DNA of 64,000 nucleotides from Candidatus Micrarchaeia archaeon. Its GTDB lineage: Archaea > Micrarchaeota > Micrarchaeia > Anstonellales > Bilamarchaeaceae. Under the pieces are notes generated by a model. That model was given only the letters and a program-made list of their open reading frames with translations, was not told the origin of the DNA and ran no database searches. A program made the position numbers and the translations under genes. The stretch lies in assembly GCA_046331685.1 (NCBI GenBank), contig JAXLQI010000007.1, positions 1,862-65,861 on the forward strand. Reading direction: 5' to 3'. Shown piece by piece: positions 8,080-63,280 of the stretch (its first letter is position 1; the number at the start of each line of letters is the position of its first letter).

Positions 8080-8095
8080 AGCAGATTTTTATATA
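8080..8095 (+). promoter_or_regulatory. TATA-like element TTTTTATATAG upstream of the 8124 gene
   Basis: About 30 nt upstream of the putative transcription start. Confidence 0.3.
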
Positions 8096-31706: not shown

Positions 31707-31886
31707 CTATTTCTTCTTTCCCCCGAACAGCTCGCCGACGGTGTCTTTGAACGATTTCTTGAGCGGCTGCTTGATGATGAAGGAGCGGAGGTTGGGGTAC
31801 TGACGCAGGAGCTCGAAGGCGAAGATGTACTCGCTCCGGTGCTCTTCCTGGAGCTCCTTCACCGTTTTCTTCGGCCCTTTCTTCAT
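31707..31886 (-). CDS. Small basic hypothetical protein (59 aa)
   Basis: MKKGPKKTVKELQEEHRSEYIFAFELLRQYPNLRSFIIKQPLKKSFKDTVGELFGGKKK. Its ATG overlaps the TGA of the upstream gene (ATGA). GGAGG lies 8 nt upstream. Stop is 10 nt before purD. Confidence 0.35.
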   Translation of the reverse strand: MKKGPKKTVKELQEEHRSEYIFAFELLRQYPNLRSFIIKQPLKKSFKDTVGELFGGKKK

Positions 31887-32587
31887 TCGAACCGCCTCCG
31901 TATGAATCCTTCCCGGATGAGCATGTTTAGGCCTTCCTCTGCCCTGGTCACCGCCACCGAGTTGGCTTTGGAGAATTCGCGCACATCTATCGTGCCCCCA
32001 TGGACCTTGATCCAGTTGTAGAGGGACTCCTTGAGCAGGTCGTCCCCCATCCCGGTGAGGGTGTTGAGCTTCTTAGCGAGCTCGTCCCTCTTCCTCTCGC
32101 ATTCGAGCAGTATCCTGGTATTGGCCTCGCTTGAGCGGAGGAGGTCCTCGTATTTCGAGCTCATGTCGTTGAACTTGGACTGGAGCTCGGTGAGCTGGGT
32201 CGAGAACTCGAGGGCGTCGCGGTCGATGATCTTCGCCGCCTCGCCGAGGAGGGAATTGATATGGGTGAATATGCTCGCAGGCCGAATCGCATAGTAGTCT
32301 TCGGCGACCTGGAGGATATTGAGGAACGTGGGCATCAGCTCGAGGAGACGGGAGATCCTGCTCCTTTTGGCTGAGAAGGTGTAGGTGAACTCGATCGAGT
32401 CGGCCTTGAACTCCACCATGTACTCGAGATATGGCTTGCCCTGCAGGTCGGTCCCTTTTATCTTCTCGACCGACAGCGCGTTCTTGGAATACGAGATCTT
32501 CGTGAAACCGAGGCCGCTCAGCAGGCTAGCGAGGCTCTTGAGCGGATTCTTCTGTTTCGCATCTACGATTATCTTCTCCTCAGACAT
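31883..32587 (-). CDS. Hypothetical protein with coiled-coil middle and possible C-terminal winged-helix DNA-binding domain
   Basis: ATG at 32587 (MSEEKIIV) preceded by a GGAGG ribosome-binding site. C-terminal LYNWIKVHGGTIDVREFSKANSVAVTRAEEGLNMLIREGFIRR is wHTH-like. The tandem-repeat/palindrome region is immediately upstream. Confidence 0.4.
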   Translation of the reverse strand: MSEEKIIVDAKQKNPLKSLASLLSGLGFTKISYSKNALSVEKIKGTDLQGKPYLEYMVEFKADSIEFTYTFSAKRSRISRLLELMPTFLNILQVAEDYYAIRPASIFTHINSLLGEAAKIIDRDALEFSTQLTELQSKFNDMSSKYEDLLRSSEANTRILLECERKRDELAKKLNTLTGMGDDLLKESLYNWIKVHGGTIDVREFSKANSVAVTRAEEGLNMLIREGFIRRRFE

Positions 32588-32588
32588 G

Positions 32589-32764
32589 AAACTTTCCTCC
32601 AAACTTTCCTCCTATTGAACCCCGGTAAAAGTTTGATCAAACTTCAGCCGGTAATACATATCCTCGAGATTCCTCCAAACTTTCCTCCTATTGAACCCCG
32701 GTAAAAGTTTGATCAAACTTCAGCCGGTAATACATATCCTCGAGATTCCTCCAAACTTTCCTCC
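32589..32764. repeat. 76-bp tandem direct repeat (2.3 copies) with embedded 16-bp perfect palindrome and 12-mer micro-repeats
   Basis: Unit tcctccaaactttcctcctattgaaccccggtaaaagtttgatcaaacttcagccggtaatacatatcctcgagat starts at 32595 and 32671, with a partial copy at 32747. The palindrome AAGTTTGATCAAACTT is at 32629..32644 and 32705..32720. The 12-mer aaactttcctcc (reverse complement GGAGGAAAGTTT) occurs at 32589, 32601, 32677 and 32753. Confidence 0.85.
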
Positions 32765-32802
32765 AATAATTTTCCGGTGGCCGACGGACCCCTCCGGACA
32801 TC

Positions 32803-34407
32803 TCAGACATTCCCTTCCTCCAAAACCACGTTCACGACCCCTTTCGTGGCCTTCCTCATGCGGACGAGCGAGAAAACAGCGATGAGGTTCTTCTCATCGA
32901 TCCCGAGCTGGCGGAGGAAGGATATTATCGACGGCTTGGAGTATCCGAATTTCTCCAGCACCGCCACAAGCTGCTCTCCGTCCAGGAGGCCGTCCCCCTT
33001 CTCGAACTCGCCTTTGATAAGGTTCAGCTGGCCTTCGGTCAGGCCCATCTCGTAAAGCATCCGCACGAACTGCTCGCGTTCTATCTCGACAATCATTTCC
33101 CCACCTTTTATCTTGTAGATGAGAAGGGGCTCCTCCCCGTCTATCTTGTCCATGAGAAAGGTCATGACCTTGGTCTGCCTCTCCGCGAAGATCATGTTGA
33201 CGGCGGCGTCGCCGACACCGAACTTTGATATCTCCCCGTCTATGAAGCTCGAATACCCTATGGAATTGCGGACATAGTCGCGGAACTCCTTGAGGATGAG
33301 ACGGAGCACGAACACCGAGCCTATGTTGCTGAAGATAGTCTTGTGCATGTCCGTCGGGTTCTGGGTGGCTATGACGAGCGAGAAGTTGTACTTGCGCCCT
33401 TCCCGGACGATCGTGATGACATCGCTCCGCTCGTCCTGCGCGATCTTCCAGGCCTCATCAAGAACGACGAAGAGCCTCACGTGCTTGTTGTCCTTCTGCA
33501 TCCCTTCGAGGCGCATCAGCTCCTTGATATACTGTAGGATCGTCAGGCCCGCGAGGCTGCGCATCTCCTCGCTCGGCAGCTCGTGGAGGTCGATGCAGAC
33601 GAGCCCTGAGCTCGTGAGCTTCTTGATGTCCATCGTCGAAGTGCCTGCGAAGAAATCCGACCCTTCGGCCGTGAAGCGCTTGAGGAGCCTTGCCGCCTTC
33701 TTCTTGCCCCATTTCTCCAGGACCCAGACGACATTCGAGAGCGTGGGCTTCTCTACCCGCCCGTCCTTGGCCAGCTCGACAAGGACATCCTTCACGTCGC
33801 CTGCCTTGAGCTTGCCCGCAGACTTCTTCATGCGCTTCTCGGCCTCGACCAGCTTGAGGTTCTCCTTGAGCGTCGGGTGGGCTGTGCCTGCCTTGTAATA
33901 GACGTATTCCAGGGCCTCCTCTATGTCGTCCCTCTCGTTCGGGTAGCTTTTCAGGTCCAGAAGGACGTCTAGGGCGGAGACTATCTGCTTGATCCGGCTC
34001 CGTTTCGGAAGCCCGACAAGGTCCAGTATGTTCAGCCTCTCCCTGGCGAGGTTGATGACGCGCCCTCCGGCCTGCCTCACCCATGTGTCATACTCGCCCA
34101 CCCAGTCGAGGATGATGGCGTTGGTGTCCCAGATCAGGGATGCCCTTGTGAGGAATGTCTTGACCGTGTATGATTTTCCCGAACCTGTGATCCCGATGAT
34201 CGCGATATGCGGATTGATGAGCTTGCTCGGATCCCAGAACACAGGCGTGCGGAGGAAGCGCGTCTTCCCGATATAGACTCCCTGCGTAGGGGGCGAGAGG
34301 AGGAGCTCCTTCCGTGGCTCTGGAGGATGCACAAGTATCATCTTGCGCGCGACCTCTTTGGAAAGCATGTAGGAAGATTTCAGGCCCATCTTTGCGCCCC
34401 ACCTCAT
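32803..34407 (-). CDS. HerA/FtsK/VirB4-superfamily (DUF87-like) P-loop ATPase
   Basis: Walker A IAIIGITGSGKSYTVK. Walker B LFVVLDEAWKI. FSLVIATQNP. There is a short N-terminal region before the P-loop, a large K/E-rich helical insertion and a ~110-aa C-terminal extension. Confidence 0.65.
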   Translation of the reverse strand: MRWGAKMGLKSSYMLSKEVARKMILVHPPEPRKELLLSPPTQGVYIGKTRFLRTPVFWDPSKLINPHIAIIGITGSGKSYTVKTFLTRASLIWDTNAIILDWVGEYDTWVRQAGGRVINLARERLNILDLVGLPKRSRIKQIVSALDVLLDLKSYPNERDDIEEALEYVYYKAGTAHPTLKENLKLVEAEKRMKKSAGKLKAGDVKDVLVELAKDGRVEKPTLSNVVWVLEKWGKKKAARLLKRFTAEGSDFFAGTSTMDIKKLTSSGLVCIDLHELPSEEMRSLAGLTILQYIKELMRLEGMQKDNKHVRLFVVLDEAWKIAQDERSDVITIVREGRKYNFSLVIATQNPTDMHKTIFSNIGSVFVLRLILKEFRDYVRNSIGYSSFIDGEISKFGVGDAAVNMIFAERQTKVMTFLMDKIDGEEPLLIYKIKGGEMIVEIEREQFVRMLYEMGLTEGQLNLIKGEFEKGDGLLDGEQLVAVLEKFGYSKPSIISFLRQLGIDEKNLIAVFSLVRMRKATKGVVNVVLEEGNV

Positions 34408-34447
34408 TAATCATTCTTCTCGATGATATATAAACTTGCGCCGGCGC

Positions 34448-37400
34448 TCACTTCTTCTCCTTCCTACGCCTGTAGTAGAGGAAAGCCAGTATGACCAGGA
34501 TGACAGCGATCAGGAGCCAGACCGGCCAGATTTCAAGGGGCGAGGAGACGGCTGGCTTCCCTTGATCCCCAGAGGCGGATCTCGGCAGGACGTTGATGAA
34601 GACCTCCTTCACCACCTTGCCGTCCTTGAGCAGCGTGACCTTTATCTTGCCGCTGATCGAAGCCGGAACCTGGACGTTCCCGTTCTCGTCAGGAGCCGCA
34701 TCGAATTCCCTGCCGTCAGGCGTGGTGATCTTCGCCGTGCAGTTCTGGCCGGGCCCGCATGCCTTGTCGTTCTCGGTCAGCAGGCAGGTCTTGTTGTCGC
34801 CCACTACCGCGGTCGAGGGGCAGGTTATGTCATTGGAAAGGCACTTGTGCTCGACGCAGGACCTGCCCTGGGGGCACTGGGGGCAACCGGATTCGTTCCC
34901 GCATTCATAGCCATATGGAACGAACCTGTGGCCTTTCGCCGCGCCGCACTGCCCGGTGATGTCCCTGCATGCGCCGCCGGCGGCTCCGGGAGGTATGTCG
35001 CATGCCTGGCTGTCCTTGCACTGGGCATCCGAGGTGCATCCGAAAGACTCCTTGCATTTGTGGTCAGGAGAGCAGGCCTGGCCGGATGGGCACATCGAAT
35101 CCGAGCAGCATCCGAACGCGAGGCAGGCATGGCCGGTTATAACGCCGCAGGGACAGCTCACCGGGATGCACTGGCCTCCGGTGCAGCTTTTCTCCGAAGG
35201 GCATTCCGAATCGTTGGCGCAGGCCGGGAGGCATTCCGCGCACGATAAGAGAGCTGCTGATGCGGATGCGGAGTAGTATCCGCTTCCCGAAGCGTGGATC
35301 GTCACCGTCTTGCCGCAGCCGTCGAAAGATGCCTTTCCGCCGCCGTCGGTAGGGCCGATTGGATCGCCGTCGACCTTGACGTCGATGCCTGCGATCGGGC
35401 TGCCAGAGCTCCTCACCGTCACGGTGTTGCCGGAGCAGGAGCTGTTGATGGAAAGCGAGAGCGAGCCGGAGTTCTCCCCGCCGCCCTGAGGAGGCAGGAT
35501 GAACAGGCCGTAGATGTCATCGGCTGTGATGTTCGAAAGGGCCGGAGCCGAGAGGGTGTTGGAAGGGGCCGCGAGAGCCTGGCCCGGCGTGACCAACCAT
35601 CCGCTCATATTCCAGGTATAGAGCTGGATCGAATCCTCGGTCTGACCGGACGCCTCGAGATCGCTCCAATGGAACGCGAGGGAGTCTATGGCCGGCTCTC
35701 CGGTGAAATTGACCTTTAGGTATTTCCCAGCGAACGATGAGCGGTTCTCCGGAGACTGGCCGGGGGACGACGTGTCGTTGATCTGGTAGCCGCCGTTGAG
35801 CGTGTCGTTGAGCGAGATGTTGACAGATCCCGAGCCGAGCTTCGAGTTCACTATCCGCAGGAGAGGGGAACCGGTGAATGGCTTGGACTCCGCTATCTCC
35901 CAGCCGTTCCCGTAGAACCATGAATTGTAGATCCATGTCGCCGTGACGTTCGCACCCTTCTCGTAGATGCCAAACGCGTTCTGGTAGGCGGTGTTGTTCA
36001 AGAAGGTCGTGTTCCTGCTCATGTTCACCAGGTAGCCTGCATCGGCATTGTCATGCGCGATGTTCCCGATCAGGCTGTTGTTGGTCGAGAGGCCGCTCCC
36101 GGGCGACGGGGGCGGAGGGGGCGGGGCGAGGGATCCGCTCCGCAGGCGGAGAAGAGGCGCGGAGAGGCTCGCTGACCGCGGCCCCTTCACTGATATCCCG
36201 CAGTCGACCGGGCAGGTGATGAATGTCTCCCCGAGGAGGGGCTCGCAGATGAAGTTCCCGCAGGAGCTGCCTCCGGAAGTCGAGTTGGTCCCGTGGAGGA
36301 GGAATCCGTTCCTGGAGTTGGAGTATGCAGTGTTGCCGCTCAAGCTGTTGTTGCTCGCGATGAAAAGCTCGAAGCCGTTCATCGCGTTCTGGTAGGCGGT
36401 GTTCCCGGCGAGCAGATTGTTGTGCGCATTGCCTCCCGAAGTCGGGGGCGCCGGGGAGAGGCTGGCGGTCGTCCGCGCCGGGGCTGTGAAGATCGGCGGG
36501 GCGCTCGAATTCGACCCTTCGAGGAAGAAGCCGTCCCTGGCATTGCCGTACGCCGTGTTGCCGGAAAGGTTGTTATTGTCGCTTATGAAGAGGTGGAAGC
36601 CGTTCATGGAGTTGTTGCGGGCGGTGTTGCCGGACAGCGAATTATGGGAGGTGATCAGGACCGGGCTGTCGTTCACCAGGAAGCCGTCCTTGCTGTTCTG
36701 GTAGGCAGAGTTGCCGTCCAGGCTGACGAAGGAGCTGGAAAGCACGGCGAACCCGTTCCCGCCGTTGGAGTAGGCCGTGTTCCCGCTGATGTTGTTGTTA
36801 TTAGAGACGAGAAGCTGGAGGCCTCCTGCAGAATTGTTGTAGATGGAATTCCCGGTGATGTTGTTCGCCGGGCTGAACTGCAGGTTGAGGCCCAGGTTGC
36901 TGTTGCCGTGGATGTTGTTCTGCCTGATGGCGCTGGACGAGACGAACTGCAAAAGGAACGGCAACGAGCCTGTCATGTTGGTGATATTGTTGCCCGATAT
37001 TATGTCAGATGATTCCGATGAGGCGATCAATCCGACGTTAGGGCATGAAGAGAGGTAGTTGTCCGTGAAATTATTGAAGGAGCTGCTGAGGAGGTAAACG
37101 CACGCGTCGCTGTTGTTGTAGATAGTGTTGAGGGTGAGGCCGTTGCCATCCGAGCCGCTCTGGAGCCTGAGGCCGCCGATGTTGGAGTAGATCTGGGAGC
37201 CTGATACCGTGTTCCCGTCGCTGTCGGTGAGGAAGATGCCGACCCGGTCATCGTGGGCGATATTGCCGGCAAGGTTATTGCCGTCGCTATTGTCCAGGTA
37301 GAATCCGCCGTCGAAGAACCCCGGGCCCGAGTTTGAGAATGCCGAGTTGCCGGAAAGGTTATTGCCGCCGCTGGAATGCAGATAGAATCCCCTCGCATTG

Positions 37401-38050
37401 CCGTAGGCGGTGTTGCCGCTGAAGCTGTTATTATCCGAGCCCGAGTCAAGATGGAAACCATCGCCGAGATTGCCGTAAGCGGTGTTGTTGACGAACGTCC
37501 CGTTCACTCCGTCGCTGAGAAAGAATCCCTGATAAGGTGCGAGAGGGGGCGGGAAGCCGGGCGCCCTGGAGATGTCATGAACCGTATTCCCTATGAACGC
37601 CGAATCCAGGGAGCTCGTGCCATAACCGATGCCGTAGAGGGTGCCGTTCCAGACCGTGTTGTTCTGGAACAGGCTGCTGTTCACCACCGAGGCTGCGATA
37701 CCGACGTCAAAGCCGGAGATGGCGCAGTTTTTCACCGTGATATTGGTCAGAGGGGCCGACGGAGGGAGGTTGTCTACCACGATTGCGCCAGAAGGCACTG
37801 AAAGATTGGTTTGTTTCGTGATAGAGAAGCCCATGCAGTCCAGCACGACGTTGGAGGAGGTTATCCTGATGCATGAGGCTGATCCGGCGATCGCGACGTT
37901 GGGATTGGGCGAGCCGATCAGGTTGCCGAGCAGGAAATACGAGCCGCTGGCGGTGATGTTGACGCATGAGGCGATGCCTCCAGGCGGCGGCGTAGCGATC
38001 GAAAAACCGGCCAGGAGCACCAAAACCGAGATAAGGACAGAAAGTCGCAT
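34448..38050 (-). CDS. Giant (1200 aa) secreted parallel beta-helix (PbH1/NosD-like) repeat protein with Cys-rich stalk and C-terminal TM anchor
   Basis: Signal peptide MRLSVLISVLVLLAGFSIA. Dozens of ~22-aa repeats (NNLSGNTAYGNARDGF, NSLSGNTAYSNS...). A ~230-aa segment carries ~38 Cys. Ends WLLIAVILVILAFLYYRRRKEKK. Confidence 0.65.
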   Translation of the reverse strand: MRLSVLISVLVLLAGFSIATPPPGGIASCVNITASGSYFLLGNLIGSPNPNVAIAGSASCIRITSSNVVLDCMGFSITKQTNLSVPSGAIVVDNLPPSAPLTNITVKNCAISGFDVGIAASVVNSSLFQNNTVWNGTLYGIGYGTSSLDSAFIGNTVHDISRAPGFPPPLAPYQGFFLSDGVNGTFVNNTAYGNLGDGFHLDSGSDNNSFSGNTAYGNARGFYLHSSGGNNLSGNSAFSNSGPGFFDGGFYLDNSDGNNLAGNIAHDDRVGIFLTDSDGNTVSGSQIYSNIGGLRLQSGSDGNGLTLNTIYNNSDACVYLLSSSFNNFTDNYLSSCPNVGLIASSESSDIISGNNITNMTGSLPFLLQFVSSSAIRQNNIHGNSNLGLNLQFSPANNITGNSIYNNSAGGLQLLVSNNNNISGNTAYSNGGNGFAVLSSSFVSLDGNSAYQNSKDGFLVNDSPVLITSHNSLSGNTARNNSMNGFHLFISDNNNLSGNTAYGNARDGFFLEGSNSSAPPIFTAPARTTASLSPAPPTSGGNAHNNLLAGNTAYQNAMNGFELFIASNNSLSGNTAYSNSRNGFLLHGTNSTSGGSSCGNFICEPLLGETFITCPVDCGISVKGPRSASLSAPLLRLRSGSLAPPPPPPSPGSGLSTNNSLIGNIAHDNADAGYLVNMSRNTTFLNNTAYQNAFGIYEKGANVTATWIYNSWFYGNGWEIAESKPFTGSPLLRIVNSKLGSGSVNISLNDTLNGGYQINDTSSPGQSPENRSSFAGKYLKVNFTGEPAIDSLAFHWSDLEASGQTEDSIQLYTWNMSGWLVTPGQALAAPSNTLSAPALSNITADDIYGLFILPPQGGGENSGSLSLSINSSCSGNTVTVRSSGSPIAGIDVKVDGDPIGPTDGGGKASFDGCGKTVTIHASGSGYYSASASAALLSCAECLPACANDSECPSEKSCTGGQCIPVSCPCGVITGHACLAFGCCSDSMCPSGQACSPDHKCKESFGCTSDAQCKDSQACDIPPGAAGGACRDITGQCGAAKGHRFVPYGYECGNESGCPQCPQGRSCVEHKCLSNDITCPSTAVVGDNKTCLLTENDKACGPGQNCTAKITTPDGREFDAAPDENGNVQVPASISGKIKVTLLKDGKVVKEVFINVLPRSASGDQGKPAVSSPLEIWPVWLLIAVILVILAFLYYRRRKEKK

Positions 38051-63095: not shown

Positions 63096-63280
63096 ATTGC
63101 GCCGAACCTATTTATATATCTTACACATTTATCCATAAAAAGCAATTTCCACATGATTTCCCTGTTTTCCTGGGCAAACCTGCCCCGGCATGGGCGTCCA
63201 AGGTGAAATAAACATCAAAACAAGGGGATCGGTGTTCAAAGCCAGCGTCCCTGTGAGAGAGGCTGGATTGTTTTGGCTGA

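Follow-up and report, generated by a model that had tools for sequence, protein, structure and literature searches.

The question raised by this locus is what a perfect tandem repeat might be doing directly in front of the start codon of a conserved gene. The repeat, with a period of 76 bp, lies in a 64,000-nucleotide stretch of contig JAXLQI010000007.1 (positions 1,862 to 65,861; hereafter the window) from a metagenome-assembled genome (MAG) of a Micrarchaeota (DPANN) archaeon, between the genes for a HerA-like ATPase and a 234-residue protein conserved in Micrarchaeota; all the relevant genes are on the minus strand. An initial annotation, made from the letters alone, had read it as a duplicated palindromic operator, possibly serving autoregulation by the product of the downstream gene. 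The evidence assembled below points to translation control and not to a DNA operator: we favor the reading, with a probability of roughly 0.55, that the repeat is an RNA-level translation leader that is portable, specific to one clade and recently duplicated.

The 76-bp repeat and its counterparts in relatives

The elements of the repeat and the gene behind it are as follows:

32689..32764, minus strand: module copy 1, 76 bp (Tandem Repeats Finder, TRF; covariance-model match 32672-32727, 69.2 bits, E 1.9e-11)
32613..32688, minus strand: module copy 2, identical to copy 1 (TRF; covariance-model match 32596-32651, 69.2 bits)
32594..32612, minus strand: partial third copy, the 19-nt direct repeat GGAGGAAAGTTTGGAGGAA (TRF and reading of the sequence)
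32588..32600, minus strand: fourth GGAGGAAAGTTT 12-mer plus C, the putative functional Shine-Dalgarno (SD) element (GGAGG 32600-32596, 8-nt spacer to ATG 32587)
31883..32587, minus strand: conserved Micrarchaeota gene of 234 amino acids (homologues, AlphaFold2 model, Foldseek)

The tandem duplication seen at the outset is real: TRF gives it a period of 76 bp with 2.2 copies, 100% matches and 0 indels at 32594-32764, amounting to about 2.25 perfect units. So are its two perfect 16-bp palindromes (AAGTTTGATCAAACTT, exact at 32629-32644 and 32705-32720) and the four GGAGG-containing 12-mers, which are minus-strand GGAGGAAAGTTT sites at 32589, 32601, 32677 and 32753. Shuffle controls give an expectation of 0.06 for the palindrome, with two matches reached in 0/100 shuffles, and of 0.18 for the 12-mer. 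The gene, however, is not one of 239 residues as first stated: the open reading frame (ORF) from TTG 32602 is, to judge by the homologues described below, a mechanical artefact, and the gene starts at ATG 32587 and encodes 234 residues. The last 12-mer accordingly ends 1 nt before the ATG, with its GGAGG core 8 nt before it, rather than lying 7 nt away.

Copy 1 is laid out as GGAGGAAAGTTTGGAGGAA, tctcgaggat, ATG TAT TAC CGG CTG AAG TTT GAT CAA ACT TTT ACC GGG GTT CAA TA(G). The 19-mer GGAGGAAAGTTTGGAGGAA also opens copy 2 and recurs as the partial third copy; such direct repeats would be an obvious substrate for unequal recombination or slippage. Because the copies are 100% identical, the duplication must be recent, as the initial annotation had surmised. 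That it is a product of assembly, the true genome having one copy, is extremely improbable. Short-read metagenome assemblies can indeed mis-resolve tandem repeats, but an independent Logan contig (L001), built at k=31 from run SRR26348421, begins exactly at the first 31-mer unique to the exit of the repeat. The 30-mer GGGGTTCAATAGGAGGAAAGTTTGGAGGAA must therefore have two successors in the reads, and hence the copy-to-copy junction is present in the raw data, which shows the junction and not the exact copy number. Moreover, the repeated overlap of 95 nt is resolvable by large-k assemblers, and relatives carry diverged two-copy arrays.

Comparison with related loci (28 from genomes, 28 from metagenomes and 17 further contigs) shows that the 76-bp unit is a leader module common to about 12 related lineages and specific to one Micrarchaeota clade; the repeat is very probably a recent duplication of a conserved module. 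It precedes the 234-residue gene in the window and in L004, L005, L011, L058, L061, L062, L066, L068, L069 and L073, always in the order segment A, segment B, ACCGG, 9 variable nt, GGAGG, segment C and ATG, with the consensus ..CGG ATG AAG TTT GAT GAA AAT TTA ACC GGn-(9 nt)-GGAGGAAATTTTCA ATG. From segment A (AAGTTTGAT) to the ATG there are 0 indels across these 11 modules. At the start codon itself the window, L004 and L032 have GGAGGAAAGTTTC[A/C]ATG in common, and L007 has GGAGGAAAGTTTCTGATG. Pairwise identities, set against the adjacent gene, are:

Whole module: 0.74
Segment A: 0.77
Segment B: 0.85
ACCGG stretch: 0.73
9 nt before GGAGG: 0.41
GGAGG: 0.90
Segment C: 0.80
4-fold degenerate sites of the adjacent gene: 0.417

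The identity of the module exceeds that of synonymous sites in all pairs (55/55). Since the module is more conserved than synonymous sites while its internal 9-nt stretch is at the neutral level, it is old and under purifying selection, and not a recent transfer. The GGAGG, which had been proposed to be a ribosome-binding site, is a genuine Shine-Dalgarno element, and no other part of the module is as well conserved.

We searched 397 kb, made up of the window and 67 loci, with a covariance model (R1) built from the module. The search recovered both copies in the window, the known proximal copies, weak distal copies in L005, L058 and L069, and a single new site at L007:1371-1427 (72 bits), which lies before the HerA-like gene. 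There the module sits between an intact canonical promoter (AAAGTTTATATA, L007:1250-1262) and the HerA ATG, the promoter being now ~175 nt from the HerA start instead of ~45. The upstream ORF of this module ends TGATG on the HerA start, and the junction between HerA and the 234-residue gene still has the ancestral 8-nt overlap. Such a placement implies that the module is a transcribed 5' leader, and counts against its being the promoter itself.

The number of copies varies between lineages, as had been anticipated, being 0, 1, ~1.5 or 2: there are two diverged copies in L005, L058, L068 and L069, ~1.5 in L073 and one in L004, while L032 retains only an A/C hybrid and L030 corresponds to L004 minus the module. 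Folding of the diverged distal copies (L005, L058, L069, L073) gave no consistent extra helix. A miniature mobile element that targets start-codon regions and leaves a target-site duplication might explain this patchy phylogenetic distribution, the two insertion sites (before the 234-residue gene and, in L007, before the HerA-like gene) and the 9-nt direct repeats flanking the insert (ATGTCTGAG in the window, ATGGCGAAG/ATGGCTGAG in L004). We nevertheless regard it as very improbable: across the 397 kb the R1 search found no copy outside the two start codons of this one operon, where orientation and start-codon register are constant; at the insert ends no terminal inverted repeats could be made out in the sequences inspected; and neither a DNA pattern nor a protein profile matched in viral contigs. 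The copies must also be old because the internal neutral stretch is saturated.

Helix B:C and the palindrome

Within the module, segment B is the 3' half of the palindrome and segment C comprises the 8-9 nt that separate GGAGG from the start codon. Segment B is complementary to segment C in every lineage, via different sequences:

L004 and L068 (also L007): B GAAACTTT, C AAAGTTTC
L005, L058, L062, L066 and L069: B GAAAATTT, C AAATTTTC
L061 and L073: B GAAGTTTT, C AAAACTTC
L011 (with a G-U wobble): B GAGAATTT, C AAATTTTC
Window: B CAAACTTT, C AAAGTTTG

In the window the two competing pairings occupy the following positions:

32675..32712, minus strand: helix B:C of copy 1, UCAAACUUU (32712-32704) with AAAGUUUGG (32683-32675), GGAGG in the loop
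32599..32636, minus strand: helix B:C of copy 2, 32636-32628 with 32607-32599
32705..32720, no strand: perfect palindrome of copy 1 (segment A, GATC, segment B), within a small ORF at codons K F D Q T
32629..32644, no strand: perfect palindrome of copy 2

In an alignment of 11 sequences (A2), 96.9% of the cells of the 9-bp helix B:C are paired, and three pairs have changed on both sides (8 cells; AU/CG/UA, AU/GC and GC/CG). The covariation score of 0.291 compares with 0.101 +/- 0.026 in shuffles, of which 0/500 reach it, and with at most 0.085 in slid-register controls. RNAalifold, unprompted, returned the same helix together with two C:G pairs that join ACCGG to the first G's of GGAGG, these two being the only paired bases of the ribosome-binding site. 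Helix B:C is moreover the minimum-free-energy structure in L005, L058, L061, L062 and L073, and constrained folds of the window place it at ~-10.5 to -11.9 kcal/mol. Two G-U cells on the sense strand favor an RNA of that strand. Taken together, these observations make it probable that B:C is a functional RNA helix.

The palindrome behaves differently. Its A:B pairing, tried in two registers, is 74-82% complete (74% in the palindrome register), with 0 compensatory changes among the 11 modules. The central G-C pair is found only in the window, the center being GATG or AGTG elsewhere, and the G46-C57 pair occurs in 5/11. In L061 and L073 segment B has changed along with C while A is unchanged. 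Segments A and C are near-identical (GGATGAAGTTTGATG vs GGAGGAAAGTTTCAATG) and B resembles an inverted copy of C; it is because A and C are such paralogous segments that B complements both. The perfect 16-mer therefore appears to be a lineage-specific by-product, its dyad having apparently been completed by a GAA-to-CAA change. As a conserved hairpin or operator the palindrome was rejected after both registers had been tried, covariation being found in neither. The two palindromes are self-complementary and able to pair with each other across 76 nt. In Rfam 15 at the gathering threshold a tRNA is the only match in the window, and the module falls in no family; permissive E-values added only microRNA-precursor-like matches of 14-26 bits against thresholds of 80-211 bits, chance matches that this mutual pairing explains.

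These results bear directly on the operator first proposed, in which a dimeric regulator, possibly the 234-residue protein itself by way of a winged helix, would bind the 16-bp palindrome and autoregulate. A perfect dyad occurring twice just upstream of the gene speaks for such a model, and segment A is constrained. The protein offers some encouragement too. Its AlphaFold2 model (mean predicted local distance difference test score, pLDDT, of 85) begins with a β-rich domain, continues in a 74-residue helix and ends in a three-helix domain, and in local Foldseek comparisons the last ~48 residues superpose on the winged-helix domains of 2xvc_A (CdvB; template-modeling score, TM, of 0.77, root-mean-square deviation 1.2 A), 5duk_B and 2hr3_B, of which 5duk_B is a putative archaeal transcription factor. 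The winged-helix-like C-terminus of the initial annotation thus holds in the model; DNA binding would not necessarily follow, since the matches include protein-binding domains, the best of them, CdvB, among these. The protein has no full-length Foldseek match and no sequence match to any regulator: Pfam, NCBIfam and PADLOC returned nothing, and a PDB sequence profile nothing significant. Further against an operator, the dyad symmetry is not conserved among the orthologous modules, B has followed C and not A in L061 and L073, and the site is internal to an operon whose promoter is 1.6 kb upstream, and overlaps no TATA box or start site. A search of the whole 64-kb window for further copies of the palindrome found no third site even within 3 mismatches. 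We accordingly hold an operator to be quite improbable.

Operon, junction and upstream open reading frames

The operon around the repeat, and the small frames within it, comprise:

34427..34434, minus strand: canonical archaeal TATA box TTTATATA of the HerA-like operon (exact-motif count and comparison with relatives)
32803..34407, minus strand: HerA-like (DUF87/AAA_10) ATPase gene (Pfam DUF87 7.8e-19, AAA_10 2.4e-15)
32803..32821, minus strand: relic of the ancestral coupled junction, GGAGGAAGGGAATGTCTGA, with SD, ATG 32810-32808 and HerA stop TGA 32805-32803
32765..32802, minus strand: unique 38-nt part of the 215-nt insertion
32688..32810, minus strand: 40-codon ORF MSEMSGGVRRPPENYWRKVWRNLEDMYYRLKFDQTFTGVQ followed by a stop, reaching from the relic ATG, which overlaps the HerA stop, to the TAG of copy 1 (32690-32688)
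32612..32659, minus strand: 15-codon ORF MYYRLKFDQTFTGVQ followed by a stop, filling copy 2; its TAG is directly adjacent to the double SD and 24 nt short of the main ATG

The spacing between the HerA-like gene and the 234-residue gene was counted in the first 51 loci with a recognizable HerA end, the window included:

8-nt overlap (ATGnCTGA): 22 loci
4-nt overlap (ATGA): 6 loci
-1 or -2 nt: 2 loci
+1 to +7 nt: 8 loci
+12 to +26 nt: 6 loci
45 nt or more: 7 loci

Where the genes overlap, the last HerA codons encode a GGAGGA ribosome-binding site. Spacers of at least 45 nt are confined to a subset of the closest relatives plus L055, a distant locus with 163 nt; spacers of 90-190 nt also occur in seven loci added later (L058, L061, L062, L066, L068, L069, L073). 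In the window 215 nt separate the HerA stop from the main ATG, the relic of the overlapping junction is still legible at the HerA stop, and its ATGTCTGAG recurs at the real start as a 9-nt direct repeat flanking the insert. This comparison shows the 215-nt spacer to be an insertion that split a conserved overlap junction. In L002:2905-3000, L061:2310-2400 and L062:2262-2300 a GC-rich hairpin (TTTGCAAACCC...GGGTTTGCA), unrelated to the module, is shared directly after the HerA stop.

The "ATPase operon" initially noted upstream comes down to an adjoining single HerA-like gene with its own TTTATATA promoter. N-terminal alignment to relatives makes ATG 34389, preceded by GAGGTGGGG, the likely true start of this gene, and transcription is predicted to begin ~30 nt downstream of the box, near 34404. 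Exact TTTATATA occurs three times in the window against 0.1 expected (8088-8095, plus strand; 34427-34434, minus; 63111-63118, plus), and it or a close variant precedes the HerA-like gene at a matching position in nearly all of the ~50 relatives' loci compared, which shows it to be the promoter box of the clade. Its position 27-45 nt before the start implies short leaders. As the canonical promoter sits upstream of HerA, the HerA-like gene and the 234-residue gene form one operon with the repeat inside it.

The repeat could alternatively be a duplicated internal promoter, each unit contributing a weak box resembling a B-recognition element and TATA box (AAACTTTTACC in the window) that drives a short-leader or leaderless transcript of the 234-residue gene; in some relatives TTTATAC lies just upstream of the small ORF, and TATA-to-start geometry would explain why the distance to the ATG is fixed. 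TTTATAC is found in the module in L058, L062 and L069 and TATATAC in L007, and TTTTATACC is a genuine HerA promoter box in L002, L061, L062 and L064. In archaea the TATA box lies at -26/-27 from the start site; on a geometric estimate the TATA-like TTTAACC in segment B would set the start site 2-5 nt before the ATG, and the distance from B to the ATG has 0 indels in the 11 modules. However, the best matches to TATA variants of the clade in the window spacer have 2-3 mismatches (2 on the sense strand), ~2 such matches being what chance would give in 215 nt searched on both strands, and no box at the clade consensus is present in that spacer, a result for the window only, as some relatives carry TTTATAC. 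The motif is not conserved in L004, L005, L061 and L066, a promoter leaves the B:C compensatory changes unexplained, and L007 retains a perfect canonical promoter upstream of its module. We therefore think an internal promoter unlikely.

The spacers contain small ORFs. The 15-codon ORF of the window is homologous to 18-26-codon upstream ORFs in L004, L005, L011, L058, L061, L062 and L073, and an 18-codon version, MKFDENLTGxxxEEIFNG followed by a stop, recurs in L005, L058, L061, L062 and L073. There its TGA and the main ATG overlap, forming the junction that is also seen at the ancestral HerA end. Segment B falls within codons 5-7 of a predicted ATG-initiated ORF in 11/12 modules; where the ATG of the module has been lost (window, L004, L011, L068) there is an in-frame ATG upstream instead. 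The upstream ORF overlaps the main gene or ends within about 10-20 nt of it in L004, L005, L011, L058, L061, L062, L068 and L073, the HerA gene overlaps the 40-codon ORF by 8 nt (-8) in the window, and successive small ORFs are joined by ATGA hand-overs in L011, L032, L062 and L066. Their translation is hence plausible. L002 lacks segments A and B and has a different 34-codon ORF, which extends from the relic junction and stops 6 nt short of the main ATG.

These features can be combined in a scheme, to which we would give somewhat less than even odds in its specific form, that translation of the upstream ORF opens helix B:C. In the ancestral state the 234-residue gene would have been translated by coupling to the HerA-like gene via the 8-nt overlap and GGAGGA. 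An insertion would then have split this junction, bringing with it a short upstream ORF served by its own weak ribosome-binding site, a 9-bp B:C hairpin (with B inside the ORF, GGAGG looped and its first two G's paired to the CC of ACCGG) and a new GGAGG with a spacer for the downstream ATG. Ribosomes leaving HerA might either reinitiate on the relic ATG or load onto the upstream ORF, and translation through B would melt B:C, exposing for the next frame both its ribosome-binding site and its start region, so that output of the 234-residue protein remains tied to upstream translation. Duplication between the 19-nt flanking repeats would have doubled both the upstream ORF, in identical copies, and the hairpin, and brought the ribosome-binding sites to four, so that in the window the hand-over design may occur twice in series, ending in a double ribosome-binding site. 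The duplication itself may be neutral and of little consequence, which is compatible with a translation leader.

Several observations weigh against this interpretation. The start of the upstream ORF has changed from ATG to CTG, ACG or TCG in 5/12 modules, a premature stop lies in the neutral 9-nt stretch in 2/11, about the rate of drift, and a hand count found synonymous and non-synonymous changes roughly equal. An ORF-relay test (a minimax-gap statistic against 1000 dinucleotide and mononucleotide shuffles per locus) placed 13/13 spacers at or below the shuffled median, with p of 0.04-0.54 (0.155 for the window) and no significance per locus; we keep it only as a trend because no locus is individually convincing and the loci are related. 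The stop-to-next-ATG gaps in the window, 28 and 24 nt, exceed the working reinitiation distance in Haloferax and E. coli. The B:C covariation comes from 11 related sequences with ~3-4 independent compensatory events, and the helix limiting initiation may repress weakly, being short and AU-rich (~-7 to -12 kcal/mol) with GGAGG mostly looped. While B:C beats A:B by 2-5 kcal/mol in L005, L011, L058, L061, L062 and L073, L066 and L068 show little difference between them, and in the window, L004 and L007 A:B is as stable as B:C (-11.4 vs -10.5 to -12.8 kcal/mol) and would free C. The patchy presence of the module among lineages counts on the same side. Selection on the upstream peptide was considered and set aside as not demonstrable, given the equal synonymous and non-synonymous events and stops at the drift rate; positions 1-9 are conserved where RNA-level constraints overlap, while positions 10-12 drift.

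Some of the same facts would fit a functionless by-product, the junction being a slippage or recombination hotspot between short GGAGGAA(A)GTTT-like repeats at which insertions, duplications and deletions would arise and vanish neutrally and a strong ribosome-binding site alone would suffice for translation. Copy numbers of 0, 1, ~1.5 or 2, the apparent A-C collapse in L032, the seemingly clean loss or gain between L030 and L004, the 19-nt direct repeats flanking the duplication in the window and the lack of significance in the ORF-relay test are all in keeping with it. Yet the module is 74% identical against 42% at neutral sites, with its internal 9-nt stretch neutral, which counts against recent transfer, and the compensatory substitutions in B:C have no place in such an account; we find it distinctly unlikely for the module. 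A more elaborate alternative, to which we assign a similarly small chance, is a three-segment switch of the leader-peptide type, in which a ribosome occupying the conserved 5' portion of the upstream ORF (segment A, MKFDE...) decides between B:A and B:C, carried by a copy-competent cassette. If true, the choice between A and C would tune the ratio of the 234-residue partner to the HerA-like ATPase, and the cassette would have seeded itself before two start codons of the operon and would repeatedly duplicate in tandem. The translation leader, with B:C as its conserved helix, remains the reading that we prefer.

The neighborhood has some further features. The 234-residue protein has 151 homologues, of which the 120 listed are nearly all of 233-237 residues, beginning M[AS]EE, and, if the copy in the source MAG itself is set aside, 54-84% identical. 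A 59-codon ORF (31707-31886, minus strand) overlaps its stop by ATGA and is preceded at 6 nt by GGAGG; in relatives an ORF of 67-122 residues has been called at this position, and purD follows 10 nt past it, so the operon may extend further. The HerA-like ATPase gives its best partial NCBIfam matches to CedB (archaeal DNA import) and VirB4-like conjugation ATPases, all far below cut-offs, and also matches HerA models below threshold. It has a C-terminal extension of ~100 residues that is highly conserved across Micrarchaeota, and in L073:1-1364 and L074:1-1364 it is 1039-1044 residues long with an intein (Intein_splicing and LAGLIDADG_3 matches). Immediately upstream of the HerA promoter (34448-38050, minus strand) is the gene for a 1200-residue protein with multiple right-handed β-helix/NosD repeats and a C-terminal hydrophobic stretch followed by basic residues. 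GGAGG-N4-10-ATG is not enriched across the window (32 found vs 27 expected), implying that full GGAGG is not the default start signal of this genome.

Significance and relation to known systems

To our knowledge, cis-regulatory RNA and translation control are essentially uncharted in DPANN archaea, because these organisms are uncultured or grown only in co-culture. The module is a small, well-delimited candidate with covariation support, and its distribution offers a natural experiment, with lineages that have the ancestral overlap, one module, two modules or a module before the other gene. The deeply conserved overlap further leads us to predict that the HerA-like ATPase and the 234-residue protein form a fixed-ratio complex, which provides a lead on two uncharacterized core Micrarchaeota proteins. 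As the element is confined to one operon of one clade and is of a kind well known from bacteria and phages, the result is useful rather than surprising.

The operators of archaeal winged-helix regulators (Lrp/AsnC, TrmB and MarR types) resemble the repeat in presenting a 16-bp perfect dyad beside a gene with a winged-helix-like product. Unlike them, this dyad is not conserved in orthologues and overlaps no promoter, and the 234-residue protein has no detectable similarity to those families.

A closer comparison is with termination-reinitiation, described by Huber et al. in Haloferax volcanii and E. coli (PMC6728339, PMC10666635). The ancestral -8 overlap with a ribosome-binding site in the upstream gene is of this kind, as are the junction of HerA with the 40-codon ORF in the window and, in relatives, the upstream ORF that ends in an overlap on the main ATG. 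However, the -8 overlap is rarer than -4 or -1, and the main gene of the window lies 215 nt from the HerA stop and 24 nt from the last upstream ORF stop, whereas archaeal coupling of this type needs overlap and is almost abolished by a distance of ~20 nt (PMC10666635).

Leader-peptide attenuators of the ermC, cat and cmlA type share with the module a short predicted leader ORF with its own ribosome-binding site and three segments, the last of which adjoins the ribosome-binding site and start of the regulated gene, and whose possible pairings, A:B vs B:C, exclude each other. In the module, by contrast, A:B, a weak pairing in L061 and L073, lacks covariation, the ribosome-binding site is not fully sequestered, and the peptide is constrained only where constraints on the RNA or the ribosome-binding site also apply.

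Coupling by RNA unfolding is established for bacterial and phage gene pairs, as in MS2 coat/lysis and coat/replicase, f1 genes VII/IX and bacterial operons (PMC12548453). The module differs in that its helix is short, covering the spacer plus two bases of the ribosome-binding site, what lies upstream is a tiny ORF in place of a real gene, and the host is archaeal (DPANN). It agrees in having the 5' strand of the hairpin within a predicted upstream frame, and in a conserved, covariation-supported base-pairing at the downstream initiation region. By analogy, the module, which belongs to no described family, would thus work like the structured translation leaders with upstream ORFs that are familiar from bacteria and phages.

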